A stretch of DNA of 60,445 nucleotides, the filler included, from Hausera hauseri (taxonomy: Eukaryota), in NCBI GenBank assembly GCA_046269625.1. It is 12 parts of 12 records of this genome, joined end to end, with 100 filler letters (N's around TTAATTAATTAA, not from the genome) between each part and the next. Parts side by side here need not be neighbours in the genome. Positions count along the whole stretch, not along the records: positions 11,056 to 16,458 come from JBJURY010262065.1; 11 more parts are not named here. One strand, written 5' to 3'. Each line of letters starts with the position of its first letter. Positions within the stretch are counted from its first letter, which is position 1. The position numbers and the translations under genes are program-made. Below, piece after piece: positions 45 to 55,104 of the stretch. Under the pieces are notes generated by a model. That model searched no databases and was not told the origin of the DNA. It saw only the letters and a list, made by a program, of their open reading frames with translations.

Positions 45-3000
45 TGCAGTTCATATGTGTATTGTACATGTGCAATATAGAACCCTCGGAACTGTCGTAA
101 TACTATGAGGAGCTATTATGGATACAAATTCAAGAGAATCCTCTATTATATTTTCCCAGTATGTGAGGCTGTATTTTATGGAGAATACATTAAGTTTTAC
201 GAAGATCATATTGCGCATATGAAAGACTTCAAGTCAAAGTCAAAAAAGGTCATCTTTAATGAGCAGCAGCCTGCTTTGGCAGCACAACCAGTTGTATAGA
301 CTGTTTTGGCAGCAAAGCCAGTTATACAGCTTGCTTTGGCAGCAAGGTCCGATGCAGGACTAAGACGCAGAGCAGCAAGAGATGCTCCATTAAAAGGCCA
401 AAAAGAGTGGTCAGTTGATGCGGCAGCATTAAATAGAAAATGGCGCAGATATGTTATTGACGCAACTGGTCAAACAACCCTACAAGATTTCCTCTTATAA
501 ACAAAGGACGAGACAGAGGGAATTCTTCAGAACAACATGGTTGATGTCAAAGCCTTTAAGGCCAATATGAAACTGGAGGGCACGTACATCAATGTTGATG
601 GCGAAGAATCTAATAGGGCCTTCAAGACCAAAAATAGGTCCATATTGGAAAACAACAATATAGTAGAATGGATGCAAGAGGCGCACGAGAAGCTGATCCG
701 TGAATCCGGGAAGAGCCAAGATAAGAAGAGCTGATAGACTCTGGCAACCATCAACAGATTGCTTGTGTATGTGCACAAGTACTCTCCCATGCCGGGTAGT
801 TCATATATTCAGTTCCCTGATTGAATCGCTAATAAAAAGGCATGCATCAATGTCCTTAATGATGACAATAAGTGTTTCATGTATGCCATTTTATATAAAC
901 TCGCACGGGATCAAAAACACGCAGCAGATCGAGTTTGGCTATATAATTATTTGCATCACAACTATGACTTTCAGTGTATTAAGTTCCCGCCATCCATAAA
1001 TGAAGTTAAGAAGTTTATTCGAATCAACAATATATCCATCAATGTCTTTGGATTGGATGATGAAGAAAAATTCTATTCCCTAAAGACATGTGATGCTGAA
1101 TTGGAAGATCATAGGGATCTTCTCCTACTAGACGACGGAGAAAAGAAACATTATGTTTGGATCAAGAACTTTGAGCATTTAGTCAGATCCCAAATTACGA
1201 ATGATCATGGACAAATAGAAATATGTAAACGATGCTTGTCCCATTTCAGCGGCGATGTAGCTGTATTGAAGCTGAAAGAGCACAAGATGCGCTGCAACAA
1301 CAATTATTGTATCAGGCCAGAATTTCCCAAGGAGGATTACATTGAATTCAAGGAGTTCGAGAAGAAGATAAAGGTCCCAGTAGTTATCTATTGCGACTTT
1401 GATGCTATTTTGCGTCCAGTTCAGAGTTGCAGTCCTAATCTCCAACACAGCAGCACAACGACATACCAATATCATGACCTATCATCATATCGCATGTGCC
1501 AAACGATTGGACAGTGAACCATATCTATTCAGAGGTCCAGGCGCAGCAGCATATTTCATGAAACGACTTGAAGATATGGCTCATAGGATTGGAGATATGC
1601 AGCAGCAGCAGCAGCATAAGGATAAAATGAGCATGTCGAAGCAGCAAGAAGAATGGCGCAAGGCAACAGCATGTTACTTGTGCTCCAAATCATTCACTAA
1701 GGAGAATCATAAAGTCTGGAATCATTGCCATTTTAGATGCAAATATTGGGCGCAGCATGCAACAAATGCAATCTACGTTGCAAAACATGTACATGTGCCT
1801 GTAGTGTTCCATAATCTCAGTCGCCATGATTCCCATTTTATTGTTCGGGAACTGGGCAGCATTGAAGGAAACATTGATGTGATCCCTAATAGTGAGAAGT
1901 ATATCACCTTTAGAAAGCATGTTGGTAAAATCCGACTTCGCTTCGTAGACAGCTTTCTTTTTATATGGTCTTCACTTGACAGTTTAGTGAAGAACTTCCC
2001 TGTAGAAAAACTCAAGGAGACGAAGCGATTCCTCCCCACTGCATTTGACATAGTCAAGAGGAAGAGTGTTTCTCTATGACTATATAACTTCATGGAAAAC
2101 AATGGATGAGACCTCATTGCCAGACAAAGAGGGCTTTTATAGCCAGCTGTCGGACTGTGATATCAGTAATGAGGACTACCAGCATGTCCAGATCGTCTGG
2201 CAGGCATTCCAATGCAGGACAATAGAGGAATATAGTGATATATATCTCCAAACCGATGTGCTGCTGCTGACAGACGTCTTTGAGAGTTTCAGTGATGTTA
2301 CAGTGGAGAGCCATGCATTGGATCCAGCTCATTTCTTTACGGCTCCAAGGATGAGTTGGGCAGCTACGTTGAGATATACGGGTCAGGCTGTAAACCATAA
2401 AGGATTATGACATGATCCTCATGATCGAGAGACATAAGAGGCGGAATATGCCAGTCCATTCATCGGTATAGTGAGGCCAACAACAAGTATATGCCAACAA
2501 CTTGTATTGATGGGCAATGAGCGCCCCCATTGCCATATGATAACTTCAAATGGGTCGAGAATCCTGAAAACATACTTATACTGGACCTGTATCCCACTGG
2601 AGATACGTGATACATACTGAAGGTGGATATGGAATATCAGGCTTCCATCCACACAAGGCATCAACAGCTGCCTTTCCTCCCTGAGAGCAAAAGACCACCG
2701 AATGGGGATTAGAAAAGTTACTATGCCATCTTGGAAATCGGGAAAGATATGTAGTTCACTACATAAATCTCCAGCAGGCGGTCAGGAATGGACTTCGTAT
2801 TACTAAGGTCCATAGAGCCCTGCAGTTCAGCCAGTCCATGTGGCTGCAGTCATACATAGACCTCAATACGAAGCTGCGAACCAACGCCAAGAACGACCTT
2901 GAGAAAGACCAATTCAAACGATATAACAACAGCGTTTTTGACAAGACCATGGGGAATATCCGCAACAAGATCAACATCTAACTGGTCTCTGAGTTGAAGC

Positions 3001-3678
3001 GGGTAAAGAAGCTCACGGCAAGCCTAACTTCCACAGAAGCACCATATATGATGAGAATTTGGTCAGCATCCATATGCTGAAAACATCCTTGCAATTCAAC
3101 AAGCCCATATATGTGGGTATGGCAATATTGGATCTATCAAAGACTTTGATGTATCAATTGAATTATGACATCATGGTCCCAAAGTTCAAGTCCATGCAGC
3201 TGATGTATATGGATACTGATAGTTTCATCTATCAGATTCAAACAGATGATATTTATCAAGACTTTGCCCAATTGGCCAAACATATGGATACCTCGGACTA
3301 TCCGAAACAACATCCCAACTATTCAATTGCCAATAAGAAAGTCCTTGGTAAATTCAAAGACGAGATGAATGGAGCAATCATCTCGATACTTCTAGGTCTT
3401 AGGTACAAAATGTAAGCAATTGATGTATGTGGTCAGATCAAAAAGAGAGCCAAGGGCGTTCAAAGGTCTACATTGGCCAAGAAGATCAATTTTGAGGACT
3501 GTGAGAGTTCTGCAGGAGCAGACTTACATCATATCGGAAATGAGAATGATCCACTTTAGGGATCATAACATCCATACAGTAACACTGCATAAGAAAAGCC
3601 TAGATAGGAATGGATGACAAGAAACAGATCCTGAGCGATGGAATCCATACACTACCTCACGGACATGTGGCATTGTAA
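45..3678 (+). pseudogene. Polinton/Maverick protein-primed family B DNA polymerase, degenerate (many stops and frameshifts)
   Basis: Fragments read in order: INNISINVFG, HYVWIKNFEHL, C-x2-C..H, VIYCDFD (exo I), CYLC..HCH (EndoVII-like insert), VVFHNL, RFVDSF, YLQTDVLLL, KPIYVGMAILDLSK, YMDTDS, GKFKDE, C-terminal DDK..LPHGH. 105..299, 306..500 and 537..734 share one frame. Confidence 0.93.
271..346 (+). repeat. 30-bp coding tandem repeat (~2.5 units, PALAAQPVV-like linker) in the pPolB N-terminal region
   Basis: ctgctttggcagcacaaccagttgtataga / ctgttttggcagcaaagccagttatacagc / ttgctttggcagcaag. Confidence 0.85.
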
Positions 3679-4988: not shown

Positions 4989-6913
4989 TACTTGTTATGT
5001 TTCATAATTTGCGTGGATATGATCTTCATCATATCTTAAAACATGAAGTAAGTAAATTCAATAGTTGGGAATTAAGTATTATTCCGCAAACAACAGAGAA
5101 GTTCCTAGCAATGAATACAATGATAAGATGTTCGGGTAAAAAGTCAGTTACTATTTGATTTCTAGACACTTTGCAGTTTCTACCGACTTCACTTAAGACT
5201 TTGGCTTCAAACTTAGACAACTACCCATTGACAGAATCGGCTTTTCCATCTGACATTATTAAGGAAAAGGAATTTTTCCATACACTGCTGCCAAATCTTT
5301 CAGTGACTTGCAGTCTATTTCTGAATTACCACCGAAATGGGATGGAGTTAGTGACAGTGATTATGAAGAAGCACAATTGGTTTGGTCAAAATACAGTTGC
5401 AATTGTCTGTTAGATTATATGTTGGTATATATGAAGCTCGACGTATACTTGTTAAGTGATGTCTTTAAACGGTTTAGACAGGAGGTTAAGTTGCAGGATG
5501 GTTTAGAAGCCGTTAACTTTGTCTTAATTCCAGGTTTAAGTTAATCAACAGCACTGTAAACCAGTCCTTGTAAGATTGAGCTTATACAGGATACTGAGGT
5601 GTATCATTTCTTTCAGTCGGGTATTTGCGGTGGCATGACTTTTGTAAATAAGCATAGGATTGTCTCTGATGAAAGCACCAGTCTTTTGTATATAGATGTA
5701 AATGATTTATATGGTTGGGCTTTATCACAACCTTTGCCATTTGCGAATTTGACTTGGATTTACCATGAGGACGTCTTGACCAGTCTGATCTAACAATTAC
5801 CTTTTATTGACTGTGTTAAGGAAAAACGAGGCTTAGTCTTTGAAGTTGACATAAGCATTCCAGCCGACAAGCATGATAAGTTGGACCAACTGCCTTTAGC
5901 CCCAATCAACCAATGTCCACCAGGTTCTAAAGTTAAGAAACTGTTGCTGACACATGAGCGTAAGTCCTACTATGTTGTTTACTATCGGCTCTTACAGTTG
6001 TACATTGAGTTAGGCGCTGTAGTTGAAAAGGTACATCAGGCTGTTGAGTTTGATCAATGCTGTCTTTAAGGATTACATCGATCTAAACACTGCTAAGAGG
6101 GCTAAAGCGAAACATCCTTTTGAAAAGCTTTTTTAAGCTCAAGAACAATAGCTTATATGGAAAAACGGTTGAAAACCTCTTAAAAAGGTCAAATTTGAGA
6201 CTGTGTAATAATGCTAGAAAGCTTATTACATATGCTAGTAAGGCCCAGTTTAAAGAGAGCATTCTTATAACCGATGATCTAATTGCTGTTCTTCTCGATA
6301 AAGACATGGTCACCTTAGATAGACTCTCACACATTGGTCAGGACGTACTTGATCTTTCTAAGTTGAGAATGTATGAGCTGAATTACATTGAGTTGGAGTC
6401 ATATAGGCAACAGTTCAATTGTGACCTTAATGTTGTTGCCGGTGACACTGACAGTTTCTTTCTTGAGTGTCGTGGAGTTGATTTGCGGTCTCAACTCTTA
6501 CCAGCAATGATAGCCAATGAACAGTTGGACACTTCGAACTATGACAAGAGTGATCCACTGTACTCGACTCGTTTCGCATCTGTAATTGGCAAATTTAAAG
6601 ACGAAAGTAAGGGCTGCGTTGAATATCAAGAGGCAATTTTCCTACGACCGAAATCCTATGCCCTCAAAACCCAAACCAAACCAGTGCTCAAATGCAAGGG
6701 CATCAATCTCAAACAGTCCGATTTGCAGTTCAGCAACTACTTACAAGCATATGAAACCGGTTGCAGCACCATGGTGGATCAGGAACAAATTGGAACCAAA
6801 AACCATCAGCTGATGACAATCCATTCGAGAAAAAGGCGTTGAATTCATTCGATGACAAACGCCAGTGGATAACAAAGAACAAAAGTGTCGCATATGGATA
6901 TCATTGTATATGA
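4989..6913 (+). pseudogene. Polinton pPolB (second subfamily), degenerate, 5'-truncated by spacer
   Basis: VMFHNLRGYD, FLDTLQFL, YMKLDVYLL, GGMTFV..YIDVNDLYGWALS, FKLKNNSLYGKT, GDTDS, GKFKDE, LRPKSY, DDKR..AYGY*. Confidence 0.92.
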
Positions 6914-7773: not shown

Positions 7774-9226
7774 TGCTAGAAGCCATGAATGATGAACGAT
7801 TTAAATTTCCTAAATTGATATCAGCAAGTCAACGAACGAGGCTTATAAAAGATACTTATGCCTCACTACGATGCGAACATGAGTGGAAGCCTAGGAACCC
7901 TACACAAAATGTGATGTCAGACAGCAATCCAAGAATTTTAATACAAAAATTCCGAACAGGATTTAGCGAATACCCAATATATAGACAAGTGGAGCCTCAA
8001 GGACACAACATATTTCAAGTGACCGTTCACAACAGCTCAGTTAGAACGGCCTGCAACCAACAAAACCCATCGACCAGCCAAGCTCGAAACGAAATGGAAA
8101 TAGTCCCCAAAAGAGCAACAGAAAGTCTGAAACCGAGTATCAGAGAAGTTCCAAGAGGACAAAAGACAAAAACTTCTTTTTTGGAGTACATTAGGAAGAA
8201 GAGAAGTAAAATCAGTAAGAACCTGAGCGAAGAAATGAAACCATCTTCTGGCCGTCTCACGCTCAACGAACAAGCAAACGGATGTAAGGAGGAACCCAAA
8301 AGGAAGGAAGCCGAAAATTACGACGAGATCCAGATGAGAACTGCCGATACAAAGCCCCGTAAGACAGAAGTAAACGTTCTTCGGAAGAATTGGGAAGAAG
8401 ATGAACCGATCATATTCACGGAATTTGGCCAAGTAAAGGAATATACCAGAATGCTCGTCATGGCCAAATATTACAGCAAAGGCAAGATCAAGGAAGCCAT
8501 ATTCTACGTATCCACTGTTCCTAGAAGAATCGTAAGTGTGAATGGATACGCTCGGGAGGACATAACCATTGGCAAATACTTAGCCCCAATATTACAGTCG
8601 AAAAACGGTACCAATAGATTAACCATTCCGGAAGATAACCAAGTCCGAATACAATTAAAAAGGTAATATAAGAAAACCGGAATACCACATTTAGACCAAC
8701 AAGATATCGTTGAATGGACGTTCGTCACCGTGTCAGATGACCCCAAGAAAAGCTCTATAGACCCAAAACAAAAACGACTACATGGATACTTATATCAAGA
8801 TAAAAAGGGACTAGTATTTGAACGAATAGAAGTCGACGAAAACCTCGTAGACATAGACGGAGGGGAGAAAGAAGAGTGCCCTGTTTGTGATGCCAATCTT
8901 TACCAAGGACTCGTGCTGTTGGATAATAAAGACTGTACCCACAAGTACTGCAGGTACTGTTTAGAAACATGGACCCTGAAAATGGGAAGACGACCTGCCC
9001 CGTATGTAGGACTGAGGCCACAAGACTGAGATACTACGCCAATGGGGAAAATAAAAAGATAGTGGAGATATTGTCCCAAAACCCACTACATCCTACCAAT
9101 TTGATCCGCAATCACCGCAAGAAGAATCGGATTCGGAAGCGGACCTACGTGGACGAATGAACCGGTTACGCGGCACCTCTTCTGACGCAATGGGCACATT
9201 CCAGAGTGCCGTTCAGGGAGGAGAAA
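7774..9226 (+). pseudogene. 3'-terminal ORF of an LTR retrotransposon ending in a C3HC4 RING finger (one in-frame stop at 8664-8666, frameshift near 8990)
   Basis: 7773..8666 and 8730..9029 are in frame; CPVC..CTHKYCRYC..W..TCPVCR; followed by PPT and LTR; homologous to 55785..56071. Confidence 0.75.
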
Positions 9227-9927
9227 TGTTATAGAGAGCTGAGAATCACAAATTGTATATATGTACAGTAAATTAAAAACGAAAGTGAAACTGAAAGCGA
9301 AAACCGAAAGAGAAACAATACATCATTGCAATTAAAATCAATTAATTTCTTGGATTATTCAGAGAAAAGACAGAAAATTTGCTAGAATTCCGCACACTAA
9401 ATGTCGAGAAAATAACTGCTACCTACGATTAATCAATATGAAATTGAGAAAAATTAGAAAGAATTAGAAATCTCTATTACCAATCCCGTATACAAATTAC
9501 TATATAAACGCAATGAAACAGTGTACAGTGTAGAACTGCATAGAATTCTAAACGTTTTATGAATCGATTGATACGGAAAAGGACTTGATTGTTATTTGAA
9601 TTTGCACCGTGAAAATTATTCGCTGTTCATTATCGGTATTGATTATTTATGTTATTAATAAAGTTTCTTTTTAAAGTTATTATAGTTTTTCGTCGCTCCT
9701 TACGAGGGACTTGTACTACACTAAAGATTAAAATCGTATTCAACTTTATAGTTAAGTCGAGAATTCCTAAATTACGCAAGGCACAGCACGCAGTATAAGC
9801 ATCATAAACTAGTGCAAATATTATAACGAGAACGGTAGGACTTATCTGCTTATAATTATTGTTCAAATTTAAGTTTCGATATTGTTATAGTTGGGTGTTG
9901 AATAGGGCCCACCTTCAACTACTAACA
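9227..9927 (+). mobile_element. 3' LTR (~700 bp) preceded by PPT (agggaggagaaa)
   Basis: TGTTA...TAACA termini; purine tract immediately 5'; end (gggcccacc...taaca) resembles the end of the LTR at 55125; no PBS follows. Confidence 0.75.
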
Positions 9928-11055: not shown

Positions 11056-12958
11056 TAAATCAAATCAAAAAGGCAGGACTGAGAATAAACCCAGAAAAAT
11101 GCCACATTTTGAAAAAGGAGGTAAAATTCTTGAGACACATTGTGAATAACAAAGGCATACAAACGGATCCATCCAAGCTTGACGCCATAAAATCATTCGA
11201 CAAACCAAAATGTGTAAAAAATCTGAGAAGCTTTTTAGGAATTTGCAATTTATTCAAGGATACGCCACAAATGCTAGGACATTAGAACAAATGAGCGGAC
11301 TGAACAACAAAAAACTGGTATGGACCAAGTCTTGCAACGAAGCATTTGAAGCAATGAAGATGGCGTTGGCATCTCCACCAATACTAGGGTTCCTAGACTT
11401 CAAGAACGAATTTATTCTGAATACCGATGCTAGCTTTGATACGATTGGAGCAGTATTATCACAGAAAGGCAGCACCGGGCATGAAAGAGTGATTGCATAC
11501 TGGTCACACGCAATGAATAATCACGAAAATGGCTATTGCATTACACGGAAGGAGTTGCTAGCTATATATTACTTCTGTCAGCATTTAATCGTTACTTGTA
11601 TGGGAGAAGGTTTACACTGAAGACGGATCACAAGGCAAATCCTTCATGTTGAAAACAAAAAAGCCGATAACAGCACAATTCCAAACATTGATAAACTATT
11701 TATCAAGTCTAGACATAAAATCGAAATATAGGAAAGGTACAGATCATGCAAACGCTGACATGTTAGCCCAAACCAATTGCGGCACATGCTGCCAATGCAT
11801 GTTAGTTCACGAAGAGTCCAAAACCCATAATATTAATACTCGGAGGATAAATGCAGTAGAATCGACAGAAGCATTTTCGTCTCAAAGAGACAGCAAAAAG
11901 AGTGAAGAAATAAAAGAAGATATCTCAAAGAAAGAGCATTGGAAATTCGAAGTAGAAAAGTGCGTAGTAAAGACAAGAAAAGGTAAGATATGGATACCAA
12001 TGGATAAGAGGGGAGAAATGATAAAGCAATGCCAGGTTATGCTAACACAAGCTCAAATAGAAAAAGTAACAAAATCCATAAGCAATAACTACGATATGAC
12101 AAATATGAAAGACACCGTCATTGAAGTGATTTGGCGCTGTGAGGCATGTCAGCGAAACAAAACCATGACAACGGATACGAAGGAAGAGATCCTGAGACTC
12201 TCGGCAAATGAATCATTCGAGAAGATCCACATTGATATTTTCGGACCGTCAAAAGAAACCTAAAAGAAGAAAAAATACATATTGACCATTATAGACTAGT
12301 TTAGCAGATATATATCACTATCACCAATAGAAAAATAGGACGAAGTTACAATAAAAGACACCGTACTAAAAACATGGATTCTCAAATTCGGCGCACCGAA
12401 AGAGATACACACAGATTGCGGAAAAGCATTTAAATCTAAGGTATTTAAAGCCATGACGGCGTCAATGGACATAAAGATGTGCTATTCGAGCCCGTATCAT
12501 CACGACACCAATGGCATAGTGGAAAAGCAATTCCTGAGTATATAGGTGCGACTCTCCACGATCGATTACGAACAGACTGGGAAGAGATACTACCAGAGAT
12601 AGAATTTACACTGAAGGCGACAGTTCAGAAAACAACAGGGAAGAACTCAGCAGAAATAATATTTTGAAGAAAAATACATAGAGAGAGATGGCATGGACAG
12701 GACAAACAAATGGAATCAACAAAGAGCAACGACCCAGAAAGGATACCAGTAAAAATGGTATTCCAGGTCGGCGAAAGCGTACTAATACAGAGGGAATCAG
12801 GAGCAGAAGATAATGACAAATATGAAGTGCCATACGAAGTCATTAAGAGAAAACACGACCGGCGATATGTACTACAACACGCGGACGGCAGAATCTTGGA
12901 AGGAAATGTGGAAAAACTGCGAAAATTCTTAAAGGAGGGGGATGTGAGGAGGAATTGA
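11056..12958 (+). pseudogene. pol: Ty3/gypsy pol (RT C-terminus, RNase H, integrase), degenerate
   Basis: GLRINPEKC..FLRH, LRSFLG, FILNTDASFDTIGAVLSQ..KELLAI, TDHKA, HANAD, CEACQ, IHIDIFGP, PKEIHTDCG, SSPYHHDTNGIVE. Confidence 0.95.
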
Positions 12959-13125
12959 AATGGAAATTAAGATTTAAATTTAATTCAAAGTTAATTCAAT
13001 AAACAGACAACAGAAAATAAGGAAACTCAAAAAGGAAGGAAAATAAGGCTCATTTCCCGAATGAAGGAGGTAAATGTTATATAAAACTTTCATAATAAAT
13101 ATCTTATGGATAATTCAATCTTACA
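12943..13125 (+). mobile_element. Short 3' LTR (~183 bp) with PPT aaaggaggggga
   Basis: TGTGAG...CTTACA termini, internal AATAAA, PPT at 12931-12942. Confidence 0.75.
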
Positions 13126-13869
13126 ATTATCAAGTGATGTTGAGGTCGGCATGGTAGAAACGCCATCTACTAACAGAGAGAAAATGGTGTCTACGTAAAG
13201 GAGGAAAAGTCAAAAGGAGGAGAACGTCGACCAGGAAGAAAGAAAGGTAATAAAAAGGTAATAGAAGAGGTGGAATCCAGAGAAACTTCTGTAGAAAAAA
13301 GTGATGTAGGACAAAAGAAAAGAGGACGAAAGAAAAGTAAGTCTGGCAAGTCAAGGTCAGAGGAAAGAGAGAAAGAAACTCAACCCATAAAAATTTTTGA
13401 CGAAACCGTCATCAAACAAGTAATACGTGACATAGACATAGACTTAGATACTGAAGATGATCTTATCCAATCAGTAATCGCTATAGATCCTGAAAATATA
13501 ATAGATGTAAACCAAGCAACAAGCACCATATTACAATTAATAGATAGTAAGGTATCTACATTTACGATAAACAAAATTTTATTTCAGTTCTTAATACTGG
13601 CCCATGACACTAGTCCAATAAGAAATAGCACGGACAATATTAGCTAAAGTAGCTGAAGATAAAAGATGAAGAAATGAAACAGTAAGAATAACGTTAAAAG
13701 AAGGAAATCAAGATATGAGAGTTATTCGAATAAATGAGACAGATGGTAAACTAACGCTGAGAGAAAAGATTAAAGAGTTAGAACCTTTCTACGAAGGAAA
13801 GGTATACGGATTAAATTTTTACGGCAGAACGTTGTATGGGTACGATAAACTACTAAGAATTTGATGTAG
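13126..13869 (+). pseudogene. Fragment of post-gag ORF (basic tract, helical domain, ubiquitin-like domain) of the family at 44900..47140; target of the gypsy insertion
   Basis: KIFDETVI..AHDTSP.R..VRITLKEGNQDMRVIRINETD..LREKIKELEPFY..YGLNFYGRTL closely matches 45190..45700 (-). Confidence 0.8.
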
Positions 13870-14075
13870 TTTTTTTTGCATCCAAAACCATTTTTATCTC
13901 CTCCTCCATTCCAAATGCTCCGACTTTAATTAACGTTTCTTCTAGCTTTCGTAATTTGCTTGTTCATTCTTTGGGTAATTGACTTTTCCCATTATTGTGA
14001 TAGTAGATCCGGTATCTATCAGGGCCACTAATGGATATCCACCTACTTCGATATATATTTCTGGTCTTAGTGCAG
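13870..14075 (-). pseudogene. Retropepsin (aspartic protease) N-half
   Basis: Manual translation RPEIYIEVGGYPLVALIDTGSTITIMG (DTG at 14008-14016), then IKVGAFG flap-like segment; absent from the ORF track. Confidence 0.8.
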
Positions 14076-14229
14076 ACTTGAGTCCGTTTTTATTACTCAT
14101 TGAGAACGCATGCTCACGATTATATTGTGAAAAATTTTCTTCGTAATCCTTTTTAGGCGTAGTACTTAGTATGTGGGGTACATTCCTCCATGCTTCACAT
14201 AGTGAAGGGCTAATGGACTTATCAACATT

Positions 14230-16142
14230 TATTCGTTATATACTTGTCCGTTATATTCGTCTGTAGGATCTAACTGAGGTAAGTCAATAATTAGTTTTCG
14301 TTTATACTTCTGCCTTCGTGATTTTAACGAAAATCGTCTACGTTTTGTCAAATATCTACCACTTCTAAATTTGATATTCGAATCATTTTTATCATTGACA
14401 TTTTTGACGTTTAGGGTACTATATGGCAAATACTTTTCAATATGGTTATTTCTTTTTCTTGGTATTTGCCTTTTCCATCTTACGTCATGATTTGCTAAAC
14501 AACAACTGGCAACTGCCGGTATTACCTCTATAAGGATTTTCCATGAGCATCCTACTGCTGCATGTATTCCATAAGCCTTACCAAGTGCAGTGAATATCGT
14601 CCGTAGGGCACTGATGATGAAATATATTGCTAAAATGTCCTAAATCAGCCTGAACAAAATACAGGAATTTTCCACACATCCTTTCCATAACGTTTCTTGT
14701 GACTTTCTTCAAATAGTTTGTTCCCGTTAAATTTTCCCATTGTGGTGAACCTTCTCCGTCCCACATCACTATTTTTGTTAACTCCATTATTACTTGTTGT
14801 CTGTGCTGGGGAAACAATAACATTCGCCGATAGTCCTCTAAATTCTATTGTGTATAAATTCCGCCTTGTGATATGCCGGTAAGGGGTTCAAATTTCTGAT
14901 TTCTCTGCAAATTAATCAGACTTAACGCCTCTGGTTTCGTTACCGGTTTATTTTTTGGCATTCTAATCCATTTATTGTCCAGTTTAAACATTGGCGACAT
15001 ACTGAAAGTACAATTATCCAACTGAGTCGGTCTTGTATTAGCGTCTAGTAATATTCTTGTTACCGGCATTACGTATCAAGGTTCCATATTATAGATTACC
15101 GGTAGTTATGAAGTACATTCCTCCGTTGGCCTAATTGCTACTTCTACCTTTCTACACTCAATAGTTATTAGTAATTCGCCCATTACTCTTCCAATTACCC
15201 CATCGCCGAATGGCATCACCGGAGCTACCATTTCGGGATTAGTTATTATTAATGCCATCTTATTCCGTATTATTTCATAATTCAGTTTACATTCGTTTAG
15301 TATAATTTCCATATATAGACTTCCTATCTTTTTTCTGACGTAATTAATTAGAAAGTCAATTTTATTATCAAAGTTTTGCGTTAACTTTATATTCTTCTTG
15401 TCTATTTTTGTTTTAGCTTGGGCTGCTTCTTTAGACAAAAGGTATACACTTTTATAATTGGATTTGAACATTTCTTCGTTATTCTTATTAATCGTTTCGA
15501 TGATTTTAAATCGCATCATTTCTTCGGGATTTTCCGAGTATACCACATGGCTACTTACGTCATTTTTACCTCTCTAACTCCTTCATTGTATGTTGTTGAT
15601 ACTTTTTCGGCCACCTTTTCTATCTTCTTATTAAATTTTCCTTCCTTTAATAACGTAAGATGACACCGATTCGAGGATAATTCTCAGGTCATTTTAGATT
15701 CTCCAGTATTGCATTCCGCGTTGTCGTATTCACATTCACTCACAGTTGTCATAATTTTAGTTTGAGTCAAATAACCCTTCATATTCTTTCAATTGAACTT
15801 GATAATTTTCGATGACAACTGTGCTTGGTGCAATGGTGCATCCAACATCATAATCCACTCCTTTACGTGTACTTTCCATTGTTTTATCTATTTTTCCTGC
15901 TCTAAAAATTCGTGTGTAATTTATTTTATTTCATATTGCTGGTATTTGTGCGTTTTGTATTGTTATGACTACAATCTTAAATGCATCTTGGCATTCTGCC
16001 CGTGATATTATTATCGGTTCAAAGGTGTTGTTGGTTCGATAATAGAAGAATTTCCAGAATAATATGCGCAATTAAATAGGTAAAAGGATTTCTTTACGTA
16101 ACATTCTCGGACTTTAACTTTTATAAATTCTGATTCCTGGAA
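14230..16142 (-). pseudogene. env: Chuvirus-like (class III-type) envelope glycoprotein, degenerate
   Basis: EC..FNCA..SSIIEPTTP; KIDFL..LY..NECKL..NKMAL..NPE..GRVMGE..IECRKVEVAIRPTEEC; PVTRIL..C..PMFKL..W; GGIYT; AYGIHAAVGCSWKIL membrane-proximal segment. Confidence 0.82.
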
Positions 16143-16458
16143 AGTAGTATAAAAATGCGGGTTCTGGATCACCCCCTGCCCCCCATGCAGCCAATCCGAA
16201 GCGTGCTTGATGCGCACACCCATACGGATGGATAGATTCGGTGACGTTTGTTTTAAAAAACACACCGTGCACGATGCACCATGCACTCCGGAAGCAGGAG
16301 AGGTGCACGAAAAAATGCGGATGTAAGATGGAAGTGTTGCACGGCCATGTGTAGCACACAGAAATGATGGGGGGCGGAAGGCGCATCGAATGGTGAAGGA
16401 CCGAAGTCGATGGGGTGTCGGGGGAAAGAAAGGGGAAGGGGCAAAAAAGTGATCCAGA
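16143..16458 (+). mobile_element. Polinton-type terminus (AGTAGT...), possibly a miniature non-autonomous element, inserted in the glycoprotein gene
   Basis: AGTAGTA..CTGGATCA..CCCCC resembles the reverse complement of the 7773 terminus; GC jump; contig ends in GTGATCCAGA, the inverted copy of TCTGGATCAC near 16163. Confidence 0.6.
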
Positions 16459-22829: not shown

Positions 22830-25800
22830 CCGTACCCCGATTTTTATGAGATGCACAAGCATCATCTTGGACCGTTTACTCGGTCTAAGAAGATGATGAT
22901 TGTGCATTGCCCCACATACCCATGATAATGTAATAGTAGTAGAGTGCATGATGTTCATGGTTTCCATAGTGTAATGGAGCAGTACTATGGCGCCACAACG
23001 GTGCACGGTAAACGGGCCTACGTTTGTCCCGATTGTTCTGTACTTGATGAAGTCAACTATGACCAATTCTACAACATTCACAAGGACCACTTGAACCAGT
23101 TTCAGAGGTCTAAAAAGGAAATATTAATGTACGCAGCAAAAAGCAGCAACAGGAAACGTCAAGCATCAGCAGGCCTTGACGAATACTTTCAAAACAACAG
23201 AAGTCAGAAACAGCAGCAGCAGCAGGAACGTGAACCGCCCATTACTGTCAAGTACAACATGAACAGATCGTACGTGGACATGAAGGTAGACATGTCGGCG
23301 AAAATAGCAATGCAATTGAAGGATGTATCCGCTAATATGCCTAACCGGTTGGAATCAGAGGTGGCCAAATTCCAACAACACCTCTGCAAAGTGCAATATT
23401 ATGCAGATGCAGAATTTGAAAATCTGCAGGGTGGCAGGAAACAATGGTACCTGTCACATCGAGCCGTACCATATTCTGAGGATCTTATTGCCGATGTAGG
23501 CGAAAAGCTTGAAGAAAAAATCGCCACCTATACCGAAAAGGGCAGTGGCTGGCAAATTGTAAAGATGTCACTCTGGGCTTTATTCTGACCAAGACGACTG
23601 ACATGATTTATCTGTTCGGACGTTCATTCATACCGACACCTGCATCCTTGAAGCAGTCTCTGGCAGTAGTGAATGTACAAAATACTTAAGACGAATACTG
23701 CTTTATTTACAAAATTCTGGTTATATTGAAATATGATCAAGTGTCCAGACATCATGCAAATTGCCCAAAGCAGTACAGTAAGTATTTCTCAGAATTGGAC
23801 TAGGACGAGTGTTGTATGTCGACGAAACTCAAAACCATTCCGGTTTTTGAACGGCATAATCGTACACTGGCAATCAACGTGTTCCGGTTCAACACAATCG
23901 TACAATACCGGTGGGTGAGGAAATTTACAAGAATCCTTACGTGGACATAATTTACCGCAGTCAAAATTTAATTGGACGCCCAGTAAATTTGTTGCTGTTG
24001 GCGAATGAAGAAAAGTTTAATAACACGGCCGTGACCAATTTGGACAGATTGTTGAACATGCAGCATGACCAGTTCATCAAAAAGCGTATACAGTGCAAAT
24101 GGTGTCCCGTGTGTCTGCATGGATTCCGGTCAAATGAAACATGGGAAAAGCATGTGGCGCTGTGCAGGCAAACTTCGTCAGGAACCACAACGTATGTTAT
24201 ACCAGTCAAAAGGGAGTTGAGATTCAGTAACTGGTCAAAAATGGTCAGTCCTGAATATGTGGTGTATGCCGATATCGAAGCAATTCTACCGCGACACAAT
24301 GTATACGATCAAAAGCACGTTCCAATTGTTGTCGGTATGTTGCTAGTACCAATAAAAGCCGCCGGGCAATCTCATTATTACGTTTCCCATCGTTGAAACT
24401 GTGTACGTGATTTTCTGCAGCAGTTGGAAACCATAGTAGAAACGGAAATCGCGCCGTGGTATCGCAACAATTGAATAAGCCATTGATTTTGGCAGATGAA
24501 TATAAACCGTTGCTTTTCGTTGTCACCGATAAATGCTATCTGTGCCACAAAAATAATACCGTTTGATGCACAGGAACGGCTCATACCGGATCACGACCAA
24601 TTCATCGGCCGATACTTGAGAGCAGCATGCAATTCATGCAATTTAGCAAGATGAGTGCAACCATTCCTGCCGTTGATCTTTCATAATTTTTGAGGTTATG
24701 GCTGTCACTATATTCTGAAATTGGCCATTAATGGCTTTCCGCACTGGGAACACTCCATAATCTCAACGAAAATGGAGAAATACCTATTGCTGTCGGCACG
24801 CTAAACCAATTCCAGGTACGCTTCCTTGATTTATTGCAATTTATCAATGAATCATTGGCAAAACTAATAAATGCCTTGCCAGATGTGCCGATAGCACTGA
24901 CACAGTTCTCTGAACATATTGCACTCAGCAAAGGCATATTTCCATATGACTTTGCAACATTATATGAGCGACTCCAGACAGCATAGAAATTACCGTCGCG
25001 ATGGACATGTATTGCAGAAGATAAATATCGGAGAGCTCAAAAATCTTGGACAGAACTGGACTGTAGGAACATGTTGGATTACATTTTCCAGTATCTTAAA
25101 CTGAACGTGCACTTTTTAGCCGACGTGTTAGAAACATTTCGGACCAAAGCACTGGCGGAAGATAGGTTGGAGCCACTCAACGTTTATTCTATACCGGAAA
25201 TGAGTTGGGCGTCAGCTCTAATGTCACTGGATCGAGACATTTAGCTGCTGCAAGATCCGGAAATGTACAGAATGTTTGATGTTGGTATTCCTGGCGGCAT
25301 GACATTTGTCAACAAGCATCAGGTCAGTGCTACCTATATCACATCACTGCTGTATATTAATATTAATAACCTGTACGTCTGGGCGCTCTCGCAATCCTTG
25401 CCGTACGGTTTATTTGAATCGGTAGTCGACAGACAAGATCTGGACGACATAATGGTCAACCTACAACGAGCAGACATGGCAGGCTCAGTTGAATACCTGA
25501 TGGAGGTCGATCGCGAGATACCAGATGAGCTGACGACGTTTTAGACGATTTACCGGTCGCACCATTTAACCAATGTCCGCCAGACTCAAAAGTGAAGAAA
25601 CTGTTCATGACGTATAAACCGAAGCTGAATTACGTGGTCAATTGGCGTCTGCTACGGTTCTACATGCAGTTGGGTGTACGCGTCACACAGCTTCATCGTG
25701 CAATCTGATTTGCTCAGGCTCCAATATTCAAGGCGTACATAGATGGAAATTCTGATAAACGAGACGCAGCTTATGCAAAGTTCGAAAAGGGCTACTATAA

Positions 25801-26088
25801 TCTGAAAAACAATTTCCTGTACGGAAAAGCAGTGGAGAATCTGAAAAATCGGCTCAATGTGCGCCTATGTAACTCGGAAAAGAGGCTGATTACGTATACC
25901 AGAAAGGCACAGTTTCGGTGATTAATTCATATTGCCGATGGATTGGTTGCTGTGCTGTTGAACAGGGAAGAAGTCTTTTTGGACCGGCCAAGTTACATCG
26001 GACAAGTGGTATTGGACCTGAGCAAGTTGCGGATGTATGAGCTGCAGTATCGCGACTTGGCACGTTACCGGCAAATGTTCGACGGCTC
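22830..26088 (+). pseudogene. Polinton pPolB, degenerate, 3'-truncated by spacer; close relative of 56691..60445
   Basis: EKGSGW, WCPVCLHGF, VVYADIE, DHD..G..AACNSCN, GGMTFV..NNLY, LDLSKLRMYE. Confidence 0.93.
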
Positions 26089-26891: not shown

Positions 26892-27194
26892 TTAAAGAGG
26901 CATATACACGATTCTGTTAGGTCCATACACATACAGATCGTGCTGATCTTCTGGCATTACTTCCTCGTCTTCTTCTTCTGTTCCACTTTCTTCTTCATCC
27001 GGGATTACCACTACGGTGGTTCCCCAGCACTGATAACATGTGGTTCTCCTTCTGCAAAAAGGACATGTTTGGTTTTTCATGAGCCATTTATCGGCGCAAC
27101 GAGTGCACATTATGTGAGTGCATCTCAGCAAAGCATATTTTCTCCCGAGGGGTCCATAGCATATGTTGCAAGGTGTTGTTCCTGAAATTGCCAA
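26892..27194 (-). CDS. C3HC4 RING finger protein with acidic tail (putative E3 ligase)
   Basis: CNIC..LRCTHIMCTRCADKW..TCPFCR; no in-frame ATG, preceded by a tttag acceptor-like sequence. Confidence 0.85.
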   Translation of the reverse strand: MAISGTTPCNICYGPLGRKYALLRCTHIMCTRCADKWLMKNQTCPFCRRRTTCYQCWGTTVVVIPDEEESGTEEEDEEVMPEDQHDLYVYGPNRIVYMPL

Positions 27195-27278
27195 AACTAA
27201 AATTCACTATGATGCTAAATATATTTTACAATAGATACTTTATTCCTTAAGTCCAAATCCTTATTACCATTATGTGCT

Positions 27279-30875: not shown

Positions 30876-33480
30876 TTAGTCTTTTCGTATTTCATCGGTT
30901 CTTGTCCAGAACGTTCTGATGAAATTAGTCCTTACTTTTTTCTTTTCGTCACGTATTACACCAACGCACGTCCATCCAAGTGGGGTTAATCTGGCTACAG
31001 GCTCGTTTATTTTTCCTGCTATTTCCTTTATAGACCTATGCAAGTGCATGTAGTTCGCACCAATTATCCCATCAAGCGATTTCGGCGATTTTTGAGCGGC
31101 GAACTTTATTTCTCTCAAATGTGGCCATTTGCTTTTCTCGACCTTCCAATTCACAGCCATTATTTTCTCAGTTGGATCATGGAGGACCAACGCTTCAAAT
31201 GGGATATTAACCTTCCCGTTTTTACTTCGTAACATCAGTTTTACCCTTTCCATTTTCGATTTAGTTGTCTTCCCACCTACTACCATAACAGACACATTCT
31301 CCTGAGTACTAACTAATCTTAATTGTTGTGCTACAGAACGCTTTATGAAGAATTCTCTACTCGCGTCATCTAACAACATACACACCTTTACTCTTCGTTC
31401 TCCACTTTCTAACCATACATCCACAGTACGCAGTGCTATTTTATTTCCTTTCGGAGCCTTTTCTGATCGCCAGGTCACGTAAGAGCTAACTTGCGCCTCT
31501 AATACATCACCTTCGCATTTATCCTTTTCTTTCCTTAATTCTCCATTACCTTGCTTGGTGTAAAATATTCTTTCTTGTTTTTTGGATGTATTTTTCTTAG
31601 ACAGTAAATCATAAACATAACGACATTTTCCTCCGTATTTGCAATTCCCTTTCACATAGTACTTACAAACTTGCACTTTACTATTTCCCGCATTAACATG
31701 TAGATACTTACATTTATTTCCAAATTTGCAATTTCCGTTTTTCTCAAATTCCCAACGTATTTGATTTTCGTTTTTCTTCATCGATTTAATACTACTCCTT
31801 TTTTACGTTTCGTTAATTGATATCTCATTTCTGTCGACATCTTTGTTCACATAGAAACTTCCTTGCGGTTTTCTTTGATACTCATGCCTTTTAGAAGATA
31901 CATGATCTTTATTATGAACAGGGAACCGTTTTTCAATTGTCAATTCATTCTTATCGTATGTCTGATCAGGCTTGTAGTCCCTTCTTGGGTTAAAAGTATT
32001 TATACCTCTGACTCTTTCAATTTTATTCCTTCGAACACTCGCGTCCAATTCAACCCATACCTTTAGTTCTTGAACTGTTCGACTCAACTTCTTTTCAGCA
32101 ACGTGTCGGGTAATTTTTCCATTAGGCTTTGGTACAACAGTCCTCCATCTAATTTTTTTTTCCTCCCCAGATTTTGTAGTCTCACTGTTATGCCATCTAA
32201 CAAAGCAACAAATCGGCCTAGGCCCGTGATGTCTTCTTCCTTGATTGGTTTAAAACGCATCACTTCAGTCATAAAGGCAGCATAACACCGTTGTTCTCCC
32301 CCATAATAAGAATCAAGCTTTCCCATTGCGGCCTTATAGCCTTCTTCAGATAGGTCGAAGTTCTCAATTAATCTCTTCGGTTCTCAATACAAGCATTGAT
32401 TTAACTGCAATTGTTTGTAGATGTCAGACATTGACGTCTTGTGAACGCAGGTGTCAAATGTTCTCTTCCATTTATCATACTCTGTGACTATACCGCCAAA
32501 CGTTGGAAGTTCTAACTTCTGCAATTTCGGCAGTATGACCTTTTCCTTCATACCACTATCTGCGCCTCTTGTTGTATTAATTTCCGATTTGCTTTCCCTT
32601 AGGCTTCTTTCATAGATAACTGCGTTGATCTTTTTATTCTTCTCATCTAATTTTTCTATTTCATTCTGTAGTAATGTTACATTTTCTTTTCTTTTTAATT
32701 TCCTGGCTGCGGTTGTCAATACACACAGTTCTTCTTGGACACTCGAAAAGATCTTCTTATAACTTTGATGGAATACGTTGTAATCATGTTCGTTCAAATT
32801 TACGTCCATCAATCTTCTTCGAATCAACGCCAATTCATTTATGGATCTTCGTCGCTCGGCAATACATTCCTCAAGTTCGTCCAATGTTATTTCGCTTCCT
32901 CCCCTTAACTGGAACGTTAAGTGAATTGTTGCGCCGTGTTGTAGGCTTTTCACTGTTTCATCGGTCTGTAGCGGTTTTCCAGCATGTAATAGACTGAACT
33001 CCTCATTTATCCTCAAGTTTTTCTTTATAATCCCAATTAGATCGCAATATGACTGAGATTCAGCTAAATCTCCGATGAAACTACGTCCACCACAACGTAC
33101 AATTGCTTGTCTTCTTATTTCTCCAACTCTAGTCATGTTATCGCCTTTTTCACCTTTTAAACTTGCATTGGCAGATTTCCCAACATCTTCCTTTGTCCAG
33201 CTAATTCTTCTTCTTCAATGTCGCCTCTAGGTTCGATATATTTTTTGACCCACTTGACCATCAACTGGTTCACTATTATGTCCTTTTCCCCCTTCCGGAC
33301 CATTCTTTTCAATTTCACCTTTATCTCCTTTAATTCTTTTTTCTCCTGGTCGTCCTGGATAACAGAAAGTCTCAATAGAAAACCGTTGTCTATTCTCTAT
33401 TTGTTTAGAGGCATAGACACTCGATATATCTTCCAAGTTTTCATTGCCTTAGGCGCAAGATTTCACGAATCTTCAATTTA
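30876..33480 (-). pseudogene. gag: BEL/Pao gag-protease with ubiquitin-like domain (32897..33109) and two CCCH zinc fingers (~31610..31760)
   Basis: LPKLQKLELPTFGG..W..F..VH..K...L.QCL (DUF1759-type), MEKLP, MLLDDAS (decayed DSG), WPHL..I..IIGANY..PVARLTPLGWTCVG (Pao protease). Confidence 0.88.
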
Positions 33481-36811: not shown

Positions 36812-39450
36812 TTAAACATCCACGACTCTCTAAACTTATTGACATATACGGAGCACCCGAACAGTCTGCGATGAACACTAGCCATCAGAGATCGGTTTTG
36901 GTGACTGCCCCCTCGGCTATACGACCCGAACATCATCTGGTCGGAAACCTGGGGGCGTCCGTGATCCGTGCGCCACAACACGCCTCTGGCATCACTCGTC
37001 AACCCCTTTCTTTTTGTTTTTAAAAATAACACATATTTCTACCATACACACTAGTAACACGGACATAGTTTATACCCTCTATATATCTCTATCCTCATTC
37101 CTACACACTTTCGACCTTTATTTGTCGCACAATGGTTCTGTGCTACACCTGTCTGACTCACCTTCTTTTTTCACTTCTCCGATCATTCATCTCACCCTTT
37201 ACTTTCACATCCGGGGTGGTTCGGACCCTGACTTTTCTGCTGAAAATTCCTCCAAAACAAGATCTGGTCGTCGCCCTCCTGATTTTGCACAATCTGCTTC
37301 TCCTTAACCTTCCTTGCACAGAGTTTTTCCTCGATAAAACTAATTCAAGCCGCACTTGGCTACAATTTCATTTACAATGGCTTAAAGCCAATCATATTAG
37401 CGATTCTTTCTTGCGCGCCTAATGACATGCTTCATGTATCTGTTCTTCATATTACTGATCCATCGATTGATAATATAATACAGAAATACTTCAACAAACA
37501 TGCTATAGGCAATCAAAAGCCTTCTAACTTTCTGCAGACCTCTATTTCACACCAAAGTGGTCTTGGCGTTACCCCCACCAACAGTGAAGACTTTATTGGT
37601 TGTTATTTCCTCTCCTCCTTGCCCACTTCCATCAGAGCCCTCCTTACTGTCGTTGACGACTCGACGGTGATTGAAAAACTTGTTCTATTGACCGATAAAA
37701 GTTTGGAAATTTTACTAACTAACAATTCACAACCCGTAGCTGCAGCATCCACGCCTACTCCATCGCACGTAGACACCATTGTTTTCGCACAGCAACTACA
37801 ATTAATGCAAAAACAATACGATATTATACAACATTCAATTTCTGCCACCACGGCCCAACTAAGTAATCTGCCTAGGTCTCGGCAAGGGGAGACCTGTGCA
37901 TCGCGTGAGTGTAGCCTCTCCAGGCACTCATTTCGTTCTAAATATCTTGGCGGACGAATAATTTAGTTTTATCACAATAAATTTCGTAGAAACGCAGAAA
38001 AATGTCTCTTCGGATGTAAATTTTATGACGAGCGTTTTGCGGTGTACAGCCCTATCTGTATTTATCACACAAAATTCCACTCTCTAGCCAGATCCGTGTG
38101 TTCCGGGATGTAAACATTATAAACCAACTTCAGTTTTTTTTCATTTTCTTCTCCTCCCCTTCTTCTTATCAGTCATCTTCTTTTCCTCCACAATCTTCAA
38201 AAAACTAAAAAAGCCGCCAGATGTCACGGCACATTCTGGCATAGGCAATACCGCTCAGTCTTCTGGCCGTCTTAAACCGCCTCCGCATTTTTTTTGTTAA
38301 AAGCTGCACTGTTCTCTGGCAATGCTCCACATATCGATTTTCTTATCGATTCAGGAGCTGCCTTTTCTCTCCTCCATTTGTCCTTCTTCCCTACATCCAC
38401 TGCAGTTTCTTATCCCCTGCTTTTCACTACCAGCGGTCAAGCTTTCCGAATCGCAGGTACCACGGAACTGATTTTTACATTTTCAAACTTTCCAGGCAGG
38501 TTTTTCTGGAAATTCCACATGACCAATATTAAATCGCCAATAATCGGCTCAGATTTTTTGGCCGCACACGACCTGTTAGTTGACTGCAAGTATGGCTGTT
38601 TGCTACGTAGAGACACCGTCGTGAACGTTAACAATTGCCTACCAGACAGCTCAACAGGCACTTTGTCTGCGAACTTACATGTGAATTTGGCATATTGCTC
38701 GTCGGTTGATAACGATACATTTTGTAGTTTATCTATTTTTTCAATTACATTTCAAACATCGAAGTGGATTTTAAAACAATCCGTTAAACCTAATATTAAT
38801 GGCGACGATGTCGTTCGTTCTTCGCCAGTCACAGTTACCGCCTCCTCTAATAATATGCCTCAATCATTTTTATCACTAAATTCCAACCTCAAATCCTATA
38901 TCATTTCTTCTTGTTCTTGCATACTCAAAAAGGACTTTAGTTTTAAGTTCCAATCAACAACTTATCACCACACTGTCACCCAACACCAAAGACCTATCAG
39001 ACAAAAGGTGAGACCATTATCTACTTGTAGACGAAAAGCCGTGGAATTAGAATTTAACGAACTCGAAAAATCTGGTATTATTCGGAGGTCAAAATCACCA
39101 TGGAATTTACCATTACATGTAGTAGGAAAAAAGGACGGTACTTTTTGACCATGTGGTGACTACCGGCAGGTAAACAATCTAACCATCATGGACGCTTACC
39201 CATTACCGCTCATGAAAGACATCCTGCACAGTCTTAACAACACCAATACGTATTCCACAATAAATCTGCACAAAGCCTACCATCAAATTCCCGTTGCACC
39301 CGATGACATTCCAAAGACTGCTGTCATCACTCCATGTGGCATTTACGAATACATCTTTATGCCATTCGGTTTACATAACGCAGCCCAAACCTTTTAACGC
39401 CACATCGACACCGTTCTCTCAAGCCTTAATTTTGCTGATCCTTACATCAG
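36803..39450 (+). mobile_element. Ty3/gypsy CsRN1-like element, degenerate: possible LTR (~36803..37209), gag, protease, RT N-half
   Basis: QKPS..FLSSLP..IRALL gag, YH.KF..A.KC..C knuckle, FLIDSGA..IIGSDFL, SPW..PLHVV.KKDG..CGDYR, DAYPLP, KTAVITP.G.YE..MPFGL.NAAQTF; LTR limits tentative. Confidence 0.85.
38199..38240 (+). promoter_or_regulatory. Putative -1 ribosomal frameshift signal at the gag-pol junction
   Basis: A AAA AAC immediately before TAA, followed by gccgccagatgtcacggcacattctggc with pairing potential (gccg/cggc; ccaga/tctgg). Confidence 0.6.
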
Positions 39451-39915
39451 TGAAGTATGGGGAAAGGAGGACACCGCGTCAAGCTTATTTTCCTATCTCG
39501 AGACCCCCCAGNNNNNNNNNNNNNNNNNNNNNNNNNNNNNNNNNNNNNNNNNNNNTTAATTAATTAANNNNNNNNNNNNNNNNNNNNNNNNNNNNNNNNN
39601 NNNNNNNNNNNGCAGAAATTAGTAAAGTTGTACAATTCTTTGTATATGAAAATTTTCGTACACATATAATGTAAAGCACTTATGGAATAAGTTTCGCAAT
39701 ATTCATTAAATTACTTTTATACTGAAACAACTTATCATTTTTTACTTGTTTCTGGATGGTTGTAAAAATTATTTAAATATTTGAACTGATAGTAGCACTC
39801 GTGACTTCTTGGCACCAAACTACATAAACGTGCAAAATTAATATTTTCCAAATTTATTTAATATACAAATATAATTGACAGTGTATCACAAGAATGAAGA
39901 TATCACAAATGCCCC

Positions 39916-46967: not shown

Positions 46968-47120
46968 TCCGTTTTCTTCTTCCTCACTTATATTATTTAT
47001 AAATTCCAATCAGAGTGCTAAATTATCTTTTGGGTCTACTTAGTATGGTGTCCCCTTCCTAGTCGTAATTTTGATAACTTAGTTACTTCTTCTTATCTAA
47101 AGGTCTTCTAGGATGAGTTA

Positions 47121-47138
47121 TCTCGGGTCATGGCACCA
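47121..47138 (-). promoter_or_regulatory. PBS (tRNA-His-like) adjacent to LTR end (CA at 47140)
   Basis: TGGTGCCATGACCCGAGA about 150 nt upstream of the gag ATG. Confidence 0.7.
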
Positions 47139-54727: not shown

Positions 54728-55104
54728 ATTATTTACGTTATTTAACTCTAAATTTGCTTTATTTACTTTAGGTTTCTCGAGTTGAATTTTAAACTGTTTA
54801 TTTTGTGCAACGACGTCTAGTTTAATTCTATTTCCGGAATTTGAACGTTTATCTACTTTTTCTGTTTCTCTATATATGTTTCGACGTGTCTCACGTATAG
54901 GTAAATTAATTTTTAATATACAATTTACTTTCAACTTATCAATGTTTGTTCTCAAACGGTTTTTAAGTTATTTATCCACGTCAATAACCTTATATCCCAA
55001 ATCGATTTTAGTTTCCAAATATCCGATTAATTGATGTGAATGGCGCTGTTTGCCGATATGTAATTAATTAACTCTGAGAAAGTAAGGCTAGCAAGGTACA
55101 TACT

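Follow-up and report, generated by a model that had tools for sequence, protein, structure and literature searches.

A decayed retrotransposon copy with an envelope glycoprotein directly before its protease in Hausera hauseri, and arrays of retropepsin domains in its relatives

Results

Organisation of the locus

The window analysed here is a stretch of 60,445 nucleotides from the Hausera hauseri assembly GCA_046269625.1, consisting of 12 repeat-rich contigs joined by N spacers. The element under study lies on the minus strand of the contig at 11056-16458. The features of this contig, and of a second element used for comparison, are as follows.

11056-13126, plus strand: Ty3/gypsy element unrelated to the env-protease unit, with RT end, RNase H, integrase, purine tract and LTR-like end (Pfam RT_RNaseH_2, Integrase_H2C2, rve)
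13179-13869, plus strand: post-gag fragment of another element copy, outside the env-protease unit (74% DNA match, family of contig 43821-48817)
13869/13870, no strand: break point, where the minus-strand element meets the plus-strand fragment head to head
13870-14066, minus strand: N-terminal half of a retropepsin with DTGS triad (Pfam RVP; profile of the relatives' proteases)
14067-14432, minus strand: linker between env and protease, putatively a cytosolic tail (blastp HSP, tiling by contigs of run X1)
14433-16142, minus strand: broken Monjiviricetes-type (gB-like) fusion glycoprotein (PF24664, best E 5e-46)
about 16142-16047, minus strand: PF24664 profile positions 62-93 (E 0.027)
15534-14647, minus strand: PF24664 profile positions 254-550 (E 5e-46)
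14636-14433, minus strand: PF24664 profile positions 554-618 (E 0.028)
14669-14580, minus strand: membrane anchor (Kyte-Doolittle windows up to 2.17)
14555-14493, minus strand: second, weaker hydrophobic stretch (Kyte-Doolittle windows up to 1.63)
16143-16458, no strand: GC-rich insert, likely a MITE, interrupting the 5' part of env; the contig ends within it (10-nt inverted repeat by eye)
48918-54967, minus strand: second, diverged element, with gag first, then X (about 3.5 kb), a signal-like stretch and finally env, cut off where the contig stops (PF24664, E 2.5e-9)

The glycoprotein matches the 653-position PF24664 profile in three collinear pieces when stops are read as X, and its signal and first ~60 profile positions are absent on the contig. 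Following the literature, we take this Monjiviricetes-type gB-like glycoprotein to be a class III fusogen; a PDB sequence search with env returned no fusogen, only two chance matches (E 0.19 and 0.73). The hydrophobic region at 14493-14669 aligns to the corresponding region of the database proteins P0004, P0005, P0006, P0011 and P0021. Several stops and at least six frame changes mark the env-protease copy as a pseudogene, and this damage is likely to be decay after insertion. The glycoprotein had been described at first pass as homologous to that at 48918-49951, and blastp within the six frames of the window bears this out (26% over 121 residues, E 3e-7; 26% over 115 residues, E 6e-6), with I.PTTPL and LY..I....CK present at both loci. 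The likeness is real but distant.

Behind the glycoprotein, on the same strand, YPLVALIDTGSTITIMG is encoded at 14037-13987. The 97-residue open stretch containing it matches Pfam RVP with E 2e-4 and 22.1 bits (curated cut-off 20.7), and a profile built from the proteases of related proteins finds it at 14058-13951 (iE 9e-7). A frame change follows just after the triad strand, a further stretch at 13930-13910 is presumably flap-like, and the domain is cut at 13870, before the C-terminal motif, so that the first half alone is present. The motif begins 456-543 nt behind the hydrophobic stretches, in agreement with the spacing of about 500 nt originally given between the membrane-proximal end of the glycoprotein and the retropepsin. 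Expressed in codons, the env-protease spacing is 188 in the window and 99-359 residues in the 11 relatives with a protease. A blastp HSP starting in the membrane region extends along the linker against P0006/P0153 (20% over 171 residues, E 1e-4); in the window copy, the linker is disrupted by a single frame change and, in the frame of env, by two stops.

The claim that no LTR, PBS or gag separates env from protease held in motif, repeat and Pfam searches. Four PBS-like motifs and purine runs of 10 or more were absent from 14433-14067, Pfam gave no gag match between the two genes, and the contig at 11056-16458 carries no long direct repeat, the longest listed being 27 nt. There are no tRNA genes in the whole window.

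The flanks of the unit belong to other repeats. The break at 13869/13870 was placed by the 74% DNA match of 13179-13869 to 45901-45211, which ends at 13869 while the other contig continues; at least one contig of the public run X1, among the 8 of about 15,000 records listed, departs from the stretch at the same position. The plus-strand fragment at 13179-13869 gave no Pfam family above the cut-off, and its plus-strand ORF had no Atlas match. Farther along, the LTR-like end of the plus-strand Ty3/gypsy element, at about 12943-13126, is suggested by TGT..ACA. On the other side, the MITE-like insert shows its 10-nt inverted repeat, read by eye, near 16163 and at the contig end. One X1 contig joins 13175 to 16143, where the same MITE-like repeat has probably inserted in another copy.

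Two ways of linking these flanks to the env copy were considered. The plus-strand pol of the same contig is not the missing partner of env, because its RNase H is 37-42% identical to those of six env-first relatives, against 54-78% among five of these relatives themselves (44-53% for the sixth). Nor did the idea that the plus-strand X piece and the env-protease piece form one inverted element gain support, as the profile of env-first relatives did not find the X piece.

The junction of env and protease recurs in other copies

Contigs from one public run allow the junction to be viewed in other copies. Run X1 contains the stretch (share of words 0.44) and may be the window's own source; it therefore shows copies rather than an independent organism. 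On 12700-16458 it contributes 14,918 contigs, mostly at 80-95% identity and with depth in 30 of 30 bins, which indicates several diverged genomic copies, the depth giving no copy number. In the X1 tables, 40 of the 932 difference rows are listed, together with 8 records out of about 15,000. Among those 8 records, 13966-14367 is covered by three contigs that overlap one another, are about 80-86% alike and differ at 47, 33 and 49 positions in about 230-250 bases; another joins 14017, in the protease triad region, to 14536, in the membrane region, and none spans the whole stretch. Other genomic copies of the env-tail/protease junction, whose existence the first-pass annotation had left to be checked, are thus represented by diverged contigs that tile it, and the junction is not unique to the window copy.

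These copies bear on the suggestion that an env-last element merely came to adjoin the protease of another element by chance nesting. At least four repeats are mixed together on the contig, and the head-to-head break lies just 120 nt beyond the protease motif; such a setting could produce an accidental neighbour. Against this, the junction is found in diverged X1 copies and in all nine near relatives that are long enough (see below), and the interval between the genes is free of LTR, PBS-like motif and gag. Chance nesting is already largely refuted by these observations, and we leave it next to no probability.

Related proteins place protease, RT, RNase H and integrase behind env

Compared by phmmer with 1.84 billion representatives, the env piece had 666 matches, of which the best 150 were listed and 14 had E<=1e-30. 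Nine of these 14 nearest relatives extend at least 200 residues past the projected end of the query, and in all nine a retropepsin follows env in the same protein and reading frame. Env before protease is therefore the true order of the family, as X1 copies and near relatives both indicate. Among the best 150 of 666 matches, 16 extend at least 200 residues past the query end, and 11 of the 16 have a retropepsin by profile; the other five, all distant, comprise one with a DUF1758-type protease (P0121), one with RNase H and three with nothing. The 134 short-tailed matches in the same set extend beyond the end of the query by a median of 97 residues.

RT, RNase H and integrase, predicted at first pass to follow the protease, are present in relatives, the window copy itself being cut at 13870 and so without RT; its contig also ends before any gag, and neither end of the element lies on it. 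Three of the nine near relatives (P0005, P0008 and P0011) carry RVT_1 and RNase H, as do P0153 and P0155, cluster mates of two more. Pfam places env, protease, RVT_1 and RNase H in one protein in P0005, P0008, P0011, P0039, P0153 and P0155, and in P0005, P0008, P0039, P0153 and P0155 the order RT, RNase H, integrase behind the protease is that of Ty3/gypsy elements. At the other end, P0009 and P0012 read gag (zf-CCHC, Retrotrans_gag), X, env and protease in one frame, and a hydrophobic stretch lies ahead of env in P0005, P0008, P0010 and P0007. The relatives with pol are only 28-40% identical to the window in env, a range that describes the polyproteins P0003-P0012 as a whole. The sole close relative among the best 150 of 666 matches, P0002 (75% over 203 residues), is a 203-residue piece from a 693-nt contig, and P0003 (37%) ends about 35 residues behind the anchor, at a true stop or a lesion.

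It might be argued that the family is non-autonomous, or that the protease is an accessory, env-proximal one, with RT lying far downstream behind more proteases or lost altogether. Beyond the end of the query, P0004 and P0009 have another 877 and 848 residues, with three and four proteases, and stop short of RT, and a deletion copy made of gag, X and an RT start is present in the window. In addition, the window's 26-residue protease half scores best against the first, env-proximal domain in five of the six multi-protease relatives, with a query so short that this is a weak indication. On the other side, about 210-220 residues separate the lone protease of P0005 and P0011 from RT, and RT must come from somewhere if a family is to have many copies. 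Distance to RT would in any case leave the gene order unchanged, and only loss of RT from all copies would alter it. We regard this explanation as highly improbable.

A stand-alone endogenous chuvirus or mononegavirus glycoprotein was also considered and rejected. An env tree was built from 24 rows: that of the window, those of 13 matches that are near or long, and those of 10 hand-picked, top-ranked stand-alone glycoproteins. In it the window groups with 10 env-then-protease proteins, separated by a 100/100 branch from the 10 stand-alone glycoproteins of ~650 residues. The tree is rooted at the midpoint only and its long branches are flagged. The more distant phmmer matches are stand-alone glycoproteins of this size, on the other side of the tree.

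Other searches contributed little. Word-indexed protein searches with env (155 aa and 317 aa) and with linker plus protease found no longer relatives; these blanks reflect the sensitivity limit of the method, because the full HMMER search did find relatives. Viral contigs held no env related to the locus, and a protease match among them (L001, E 5e-4) was rejected as chance, lying inside a 2215-residue phage-type ORF. No related locus appeared in 211 candidate stretches of metagenome contigs.

Two further observations concern the relatives themselves. P0005 corresponds to HBK71150.1, a 2627-residue env-PR-RT-RH-IN polyprotein deposited under a Flavobacteriaceae MAG as a hypothetical protein, and is likely to be animal retroelement DNA binned into a bacterial genome. 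In P0005, P0008, P0039, P0153 and P0155 the ORF continues well beyond the integrase core, by several hundred to more than 1500 residues, and this extension contains one or two more membrane-like stretches.

Env and pol are probably read in one frame

The possibility of a programmed -1 frameshift near 14230, raised by the first-pass annotation, gained no ground from either relatives or copies. Were env and pol separate frames joined by such a frameshift or by readthrough, the level of Pol would be lowered relative to Env. Certain features of the window copy would fit: the frames of env tail and protease are one base apart in the -1 sense and overlap at about 14235-14100, and the stop at 14231 is absent from the 40 of 932 X1 difference rows listed. 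In the linker, length differences come from only three X1 contigs, 6% of the local depth. The relatives speak the other way, as the protease is in the env frame in all 11 with a protease. X1 contigs also differ in length from the window copy at four of its frame changes. Slippery-type heptamers in 14020-14520 number two, against 2.7 expected per 500 nt, and the one within the frame overlap is out of phase by reading of the frames. Of the two linker stops, one is private to the window copy relative to other X1 copies, so the env frame continues past 14230 in other copies. We consider a frameshift or readthrough arrangement quite unlikely, and favour a single continuous frame.

Two gag contigs, and what their lack of pol means

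It had been proposed that env preceding pol explains why two gag contigs of the window have no pol. This fits one contig and is not supported for the other. The contig at 48918-56071 lacks pol because it ends inside env; its gag matches P0010 and P0009, and an X unit at 51048-50674 on the minus strand is common to P0153, P0009, P0005 and P0021, where it is conserved ahead of env (iE 1.3e-11, reversed control empty). By eye this unit looks helical and ubiquitin-like; it has no Pfam family and no Pfam ubiquitin match. The contig at 43821-48817, by comparison, continues behind X, without env or protease, into a remnant of the start of RT at 44909-44775 on the minus strand (iE 1.5e-4 with a profile of six relatives; reversed-frame control empty). 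The remnant has no Pfam or PDB match, the profile of env-first relatives did not pick up the X of this contig, and the whole looks like an internal deletion copy.

The sequence after the RT-start remnant resembles, by eye, a piece of another transposon. PBS-like stretches lie ahead of both gag genes at about 47140 and 55120 on the minus strand, and we assume that they resemble the ends of tRNA-His and tRNA-Arg. Both contigs also have a short TGGCACAGG motif farther upstream of these stretches.

Other repeats and a few genes lie elsewhere in the window. A Ty3/gypsy element at 37283-39473 (plus strand) has the ordinary order gag-protease-RT and a DSG protease, and 30879-33214 (minus strand) looks like the gag region of a BEL/Pao element, containing two CCCH zinc fingers and preceded by a weak ubiquitin match. 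Four decayed copies of a DNA polymerase region (825-3412, 4994-6839, 22832-26087 and 57205-60437; two are 77% alike over 3.3 kb) are presumably of Polinton/Maverick type, going by their motifs. Host-type genes that are plainly intact number just two in the window, both of them open, intron-free amino-acid transporter genes arranged in tandem at 39919-41364 and 42020-43504 (minus strand) and 70% alike in DNA (Aa_trans E 6e-60 for the former). A 60-nt stretch, 88% alike between two contigs, occurs at 9171-9230 and 55781-55840 beside RING-finger pieces, with further RING ORFs at 8667-9026 and 26895-27203.

Arrays of protease domains in the relatives

More than one protease domain was found in six of the nine near relatives, which have two to four diverged domains each. 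P0004 has three, P0006, P0007 and P0012 have two each, and P0009 has four; P0008 has two before RT and one after integrase. The cluster mate P0155 reaches seven, five of them ahead of RT and the other two behind integrase. The E-values of the array profile are circular, because the profile was seeded from these same proteins, and one match, P0155 1918-1999, was dropped since it lies within the ankyrin repeats of that protein and is one of the profile's seeds. Independently, Pfam recognises up to six protease stretches in P0155 and three in P0009.

The catalytic triad and the C-terminal hydrophobic-Gly motif are both kept in 23 of 28 domains (a total that includes the dropped P0155 match). Domains within one protein are 19-51% identical, and seven neighbouring pairs lie 35-60 residues apart. 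In a tree of 25 protease domains, two of 22 inner branches are starred; this tree is unsettled, and we therefore claim no order of duplications.

One tandem pair, from P0007, was modelled with AlphaFold2 using five sequences (pLDDT 70.6, pTM 0.68). In a structure search with this model, tethered HIV-1 protease dimers took ranks 1-16, with a TM-score of up to 0.77 (target length), and superposed over both domains (Z 17.6, rmsd 2.6, 183 aligned). The predicted fold of the P0007 pair is thus that of a tethered HIV protease dimer, a match that is weak evidence because two retropepsin domains tend to pack like solved dimers. The likeness is to engineered molecules (PDB 3ka2 and 4ep2), whereas the P0007 pair is natural and belongs to a relative, outside the window. 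In pepsins, the inter-lobe sheet differs.

Discussion

We conclude that the locus is very probably what remains, after truncation and decay, of one member of a multi-copy retrotransposon family that has env directly before the protease and is likely to be a Burro-like gag-env-pol Ty3/gypsy lineage. The order itself is already published and is not new; an env-before-protease copy adds little on its own, because it rediscovers that order in one more decayed family.

The closest described systems include flatworm elements. In a review by Arkhipova and Yushenova (2019, PMC6431247), Burro, a giant gypsy-like element of planarians, has env in frame between gag and pol and is called the first such case. 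For Burro/GYPSM1 the review also describes an env that matches fusion glycoproteins of mononegaviruses and is preceded by a long accessory region with ubiquitin/SUMO-like and BCL2-like domains, an internal region of up to 25 kb, and one protease plus a dUTPase-like domain before RT. Env placement and env type resemble those of the window family, a comparison made by description and with a window copy that is a 2.3-kb decayed piece. A weak Bcl-2 match just ahead of env is present in P0003 only and below the cut-off (E 1e-3), and P0155 has ankyrin repeats. Burro, as described there, has one protease, whereas the relatives here have one to five before RT and up to two after integrase. The frame is broken in the window copy; env, protease and RT are in one frame in the relatives. 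Pfam gave no dUTPase match in the six relatives with RT, the review having used HHpred; the protease-RT gap in the relatives is 210-240 residues.

A recent survey (Chary and Hayashi, eLife 2026, PMC13524379) describes GAG-ENV-POL Ty3/gypsy errantiviruses with HSV/gB-type env in Platyhelminthes, Nematoda and Bryozoa, and lists nine such flatworm elements. Order, env type and multi-copy state are as in the window family; the survey covers intact copies, whereas the window copy is broken. Six Schmidtea env rows of its supplement share short motifs with the window env, by eye and with order kept (QES.F...EC, Y..[EQ]L[KR]E[YF].G.F[DE], C.TG.S, MRF and TNY/SNY). Its main text uses 'protease' once and 'polyprotein' and 'Burro' never, so protease number is not treated there. 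Elsewhere, as cited in that survey, non-canonical nematode ERVs have a flipped ENV/POL order (Sacco et al. 2022, J Gen Virol 103:001739), the same env-before-pol order as in the window family but in nematode hosts, and chuvirus-like glycoproteins, of the same Pfam env family as the window env, occur in mosquito BEL/Pao elements (Dezordi et al. 2020). A BEL/Pao element with such a glycoprotein was rejected as an identification of the locus: RVP and gag-asp_proteas are found here and in near relatives, with no DUF1758 in the 15 + 3 proteins scanned, and among proteins scanned DUF1758 is confined to the distant P0121.

The anatomy of the relatives allows a general mechanism to be outlined for Burro-like elements of this family. 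Active copies would make one polyprotein, Gag-X-Env-PR-RT-RH-IN. From this layout and general knowledge of membrane insertion, an internal signal sequence would send the Env ectodomain into the ER, and host signal peptidase would free Gag-X. The membrane anchor would then stop transfer, so that the protease and the rest of Pol would remain cytosolic and attached to the tail of Env. Neither frameshifting nor splicing would be involved, the ratio of Gag to Env to Pol would be 1:1:1, and Pol would reach the particle on the tail of Env, not as Gag-Pol. Finally, the retropepsin would cut Pol loose, and Env trimers could favour its dimerisation.

The protease arrays raise a more speculative proposal, namely an env-first lineage with arrays of two to seven old, motif-complete retropepsins, in which pairs 35-60 residues apart are natural single-chain dimers and the window half corresponds to the first domain. 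We put this forward tentatively and think it on balance doubtful. We found no description of retropepsin arrays in the literature; Grohme 2018, Jurka 2007, Sacco 2022 and published figures may contain them. According to Llorens et al. (2009, PMC2642776), the peptidases of LTR elements are single-domain and pepsins are assumed to derive from a duplication.

Were the proposal true, single-chain dimers would be the intermediate predicted by the duplication model for the origin of pepsins, and if the close pairs are active in this form, the step from dimer to pepsin would become testable with natural proteins. With a single-chain dimer, a Pol still attached to the tail of Env could also release itself with no need of a second molecule to pair with. 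Single ORFs with env first would further imply that it is the host that separates Gag from Pol, and that Pol is carried by the Env tail.
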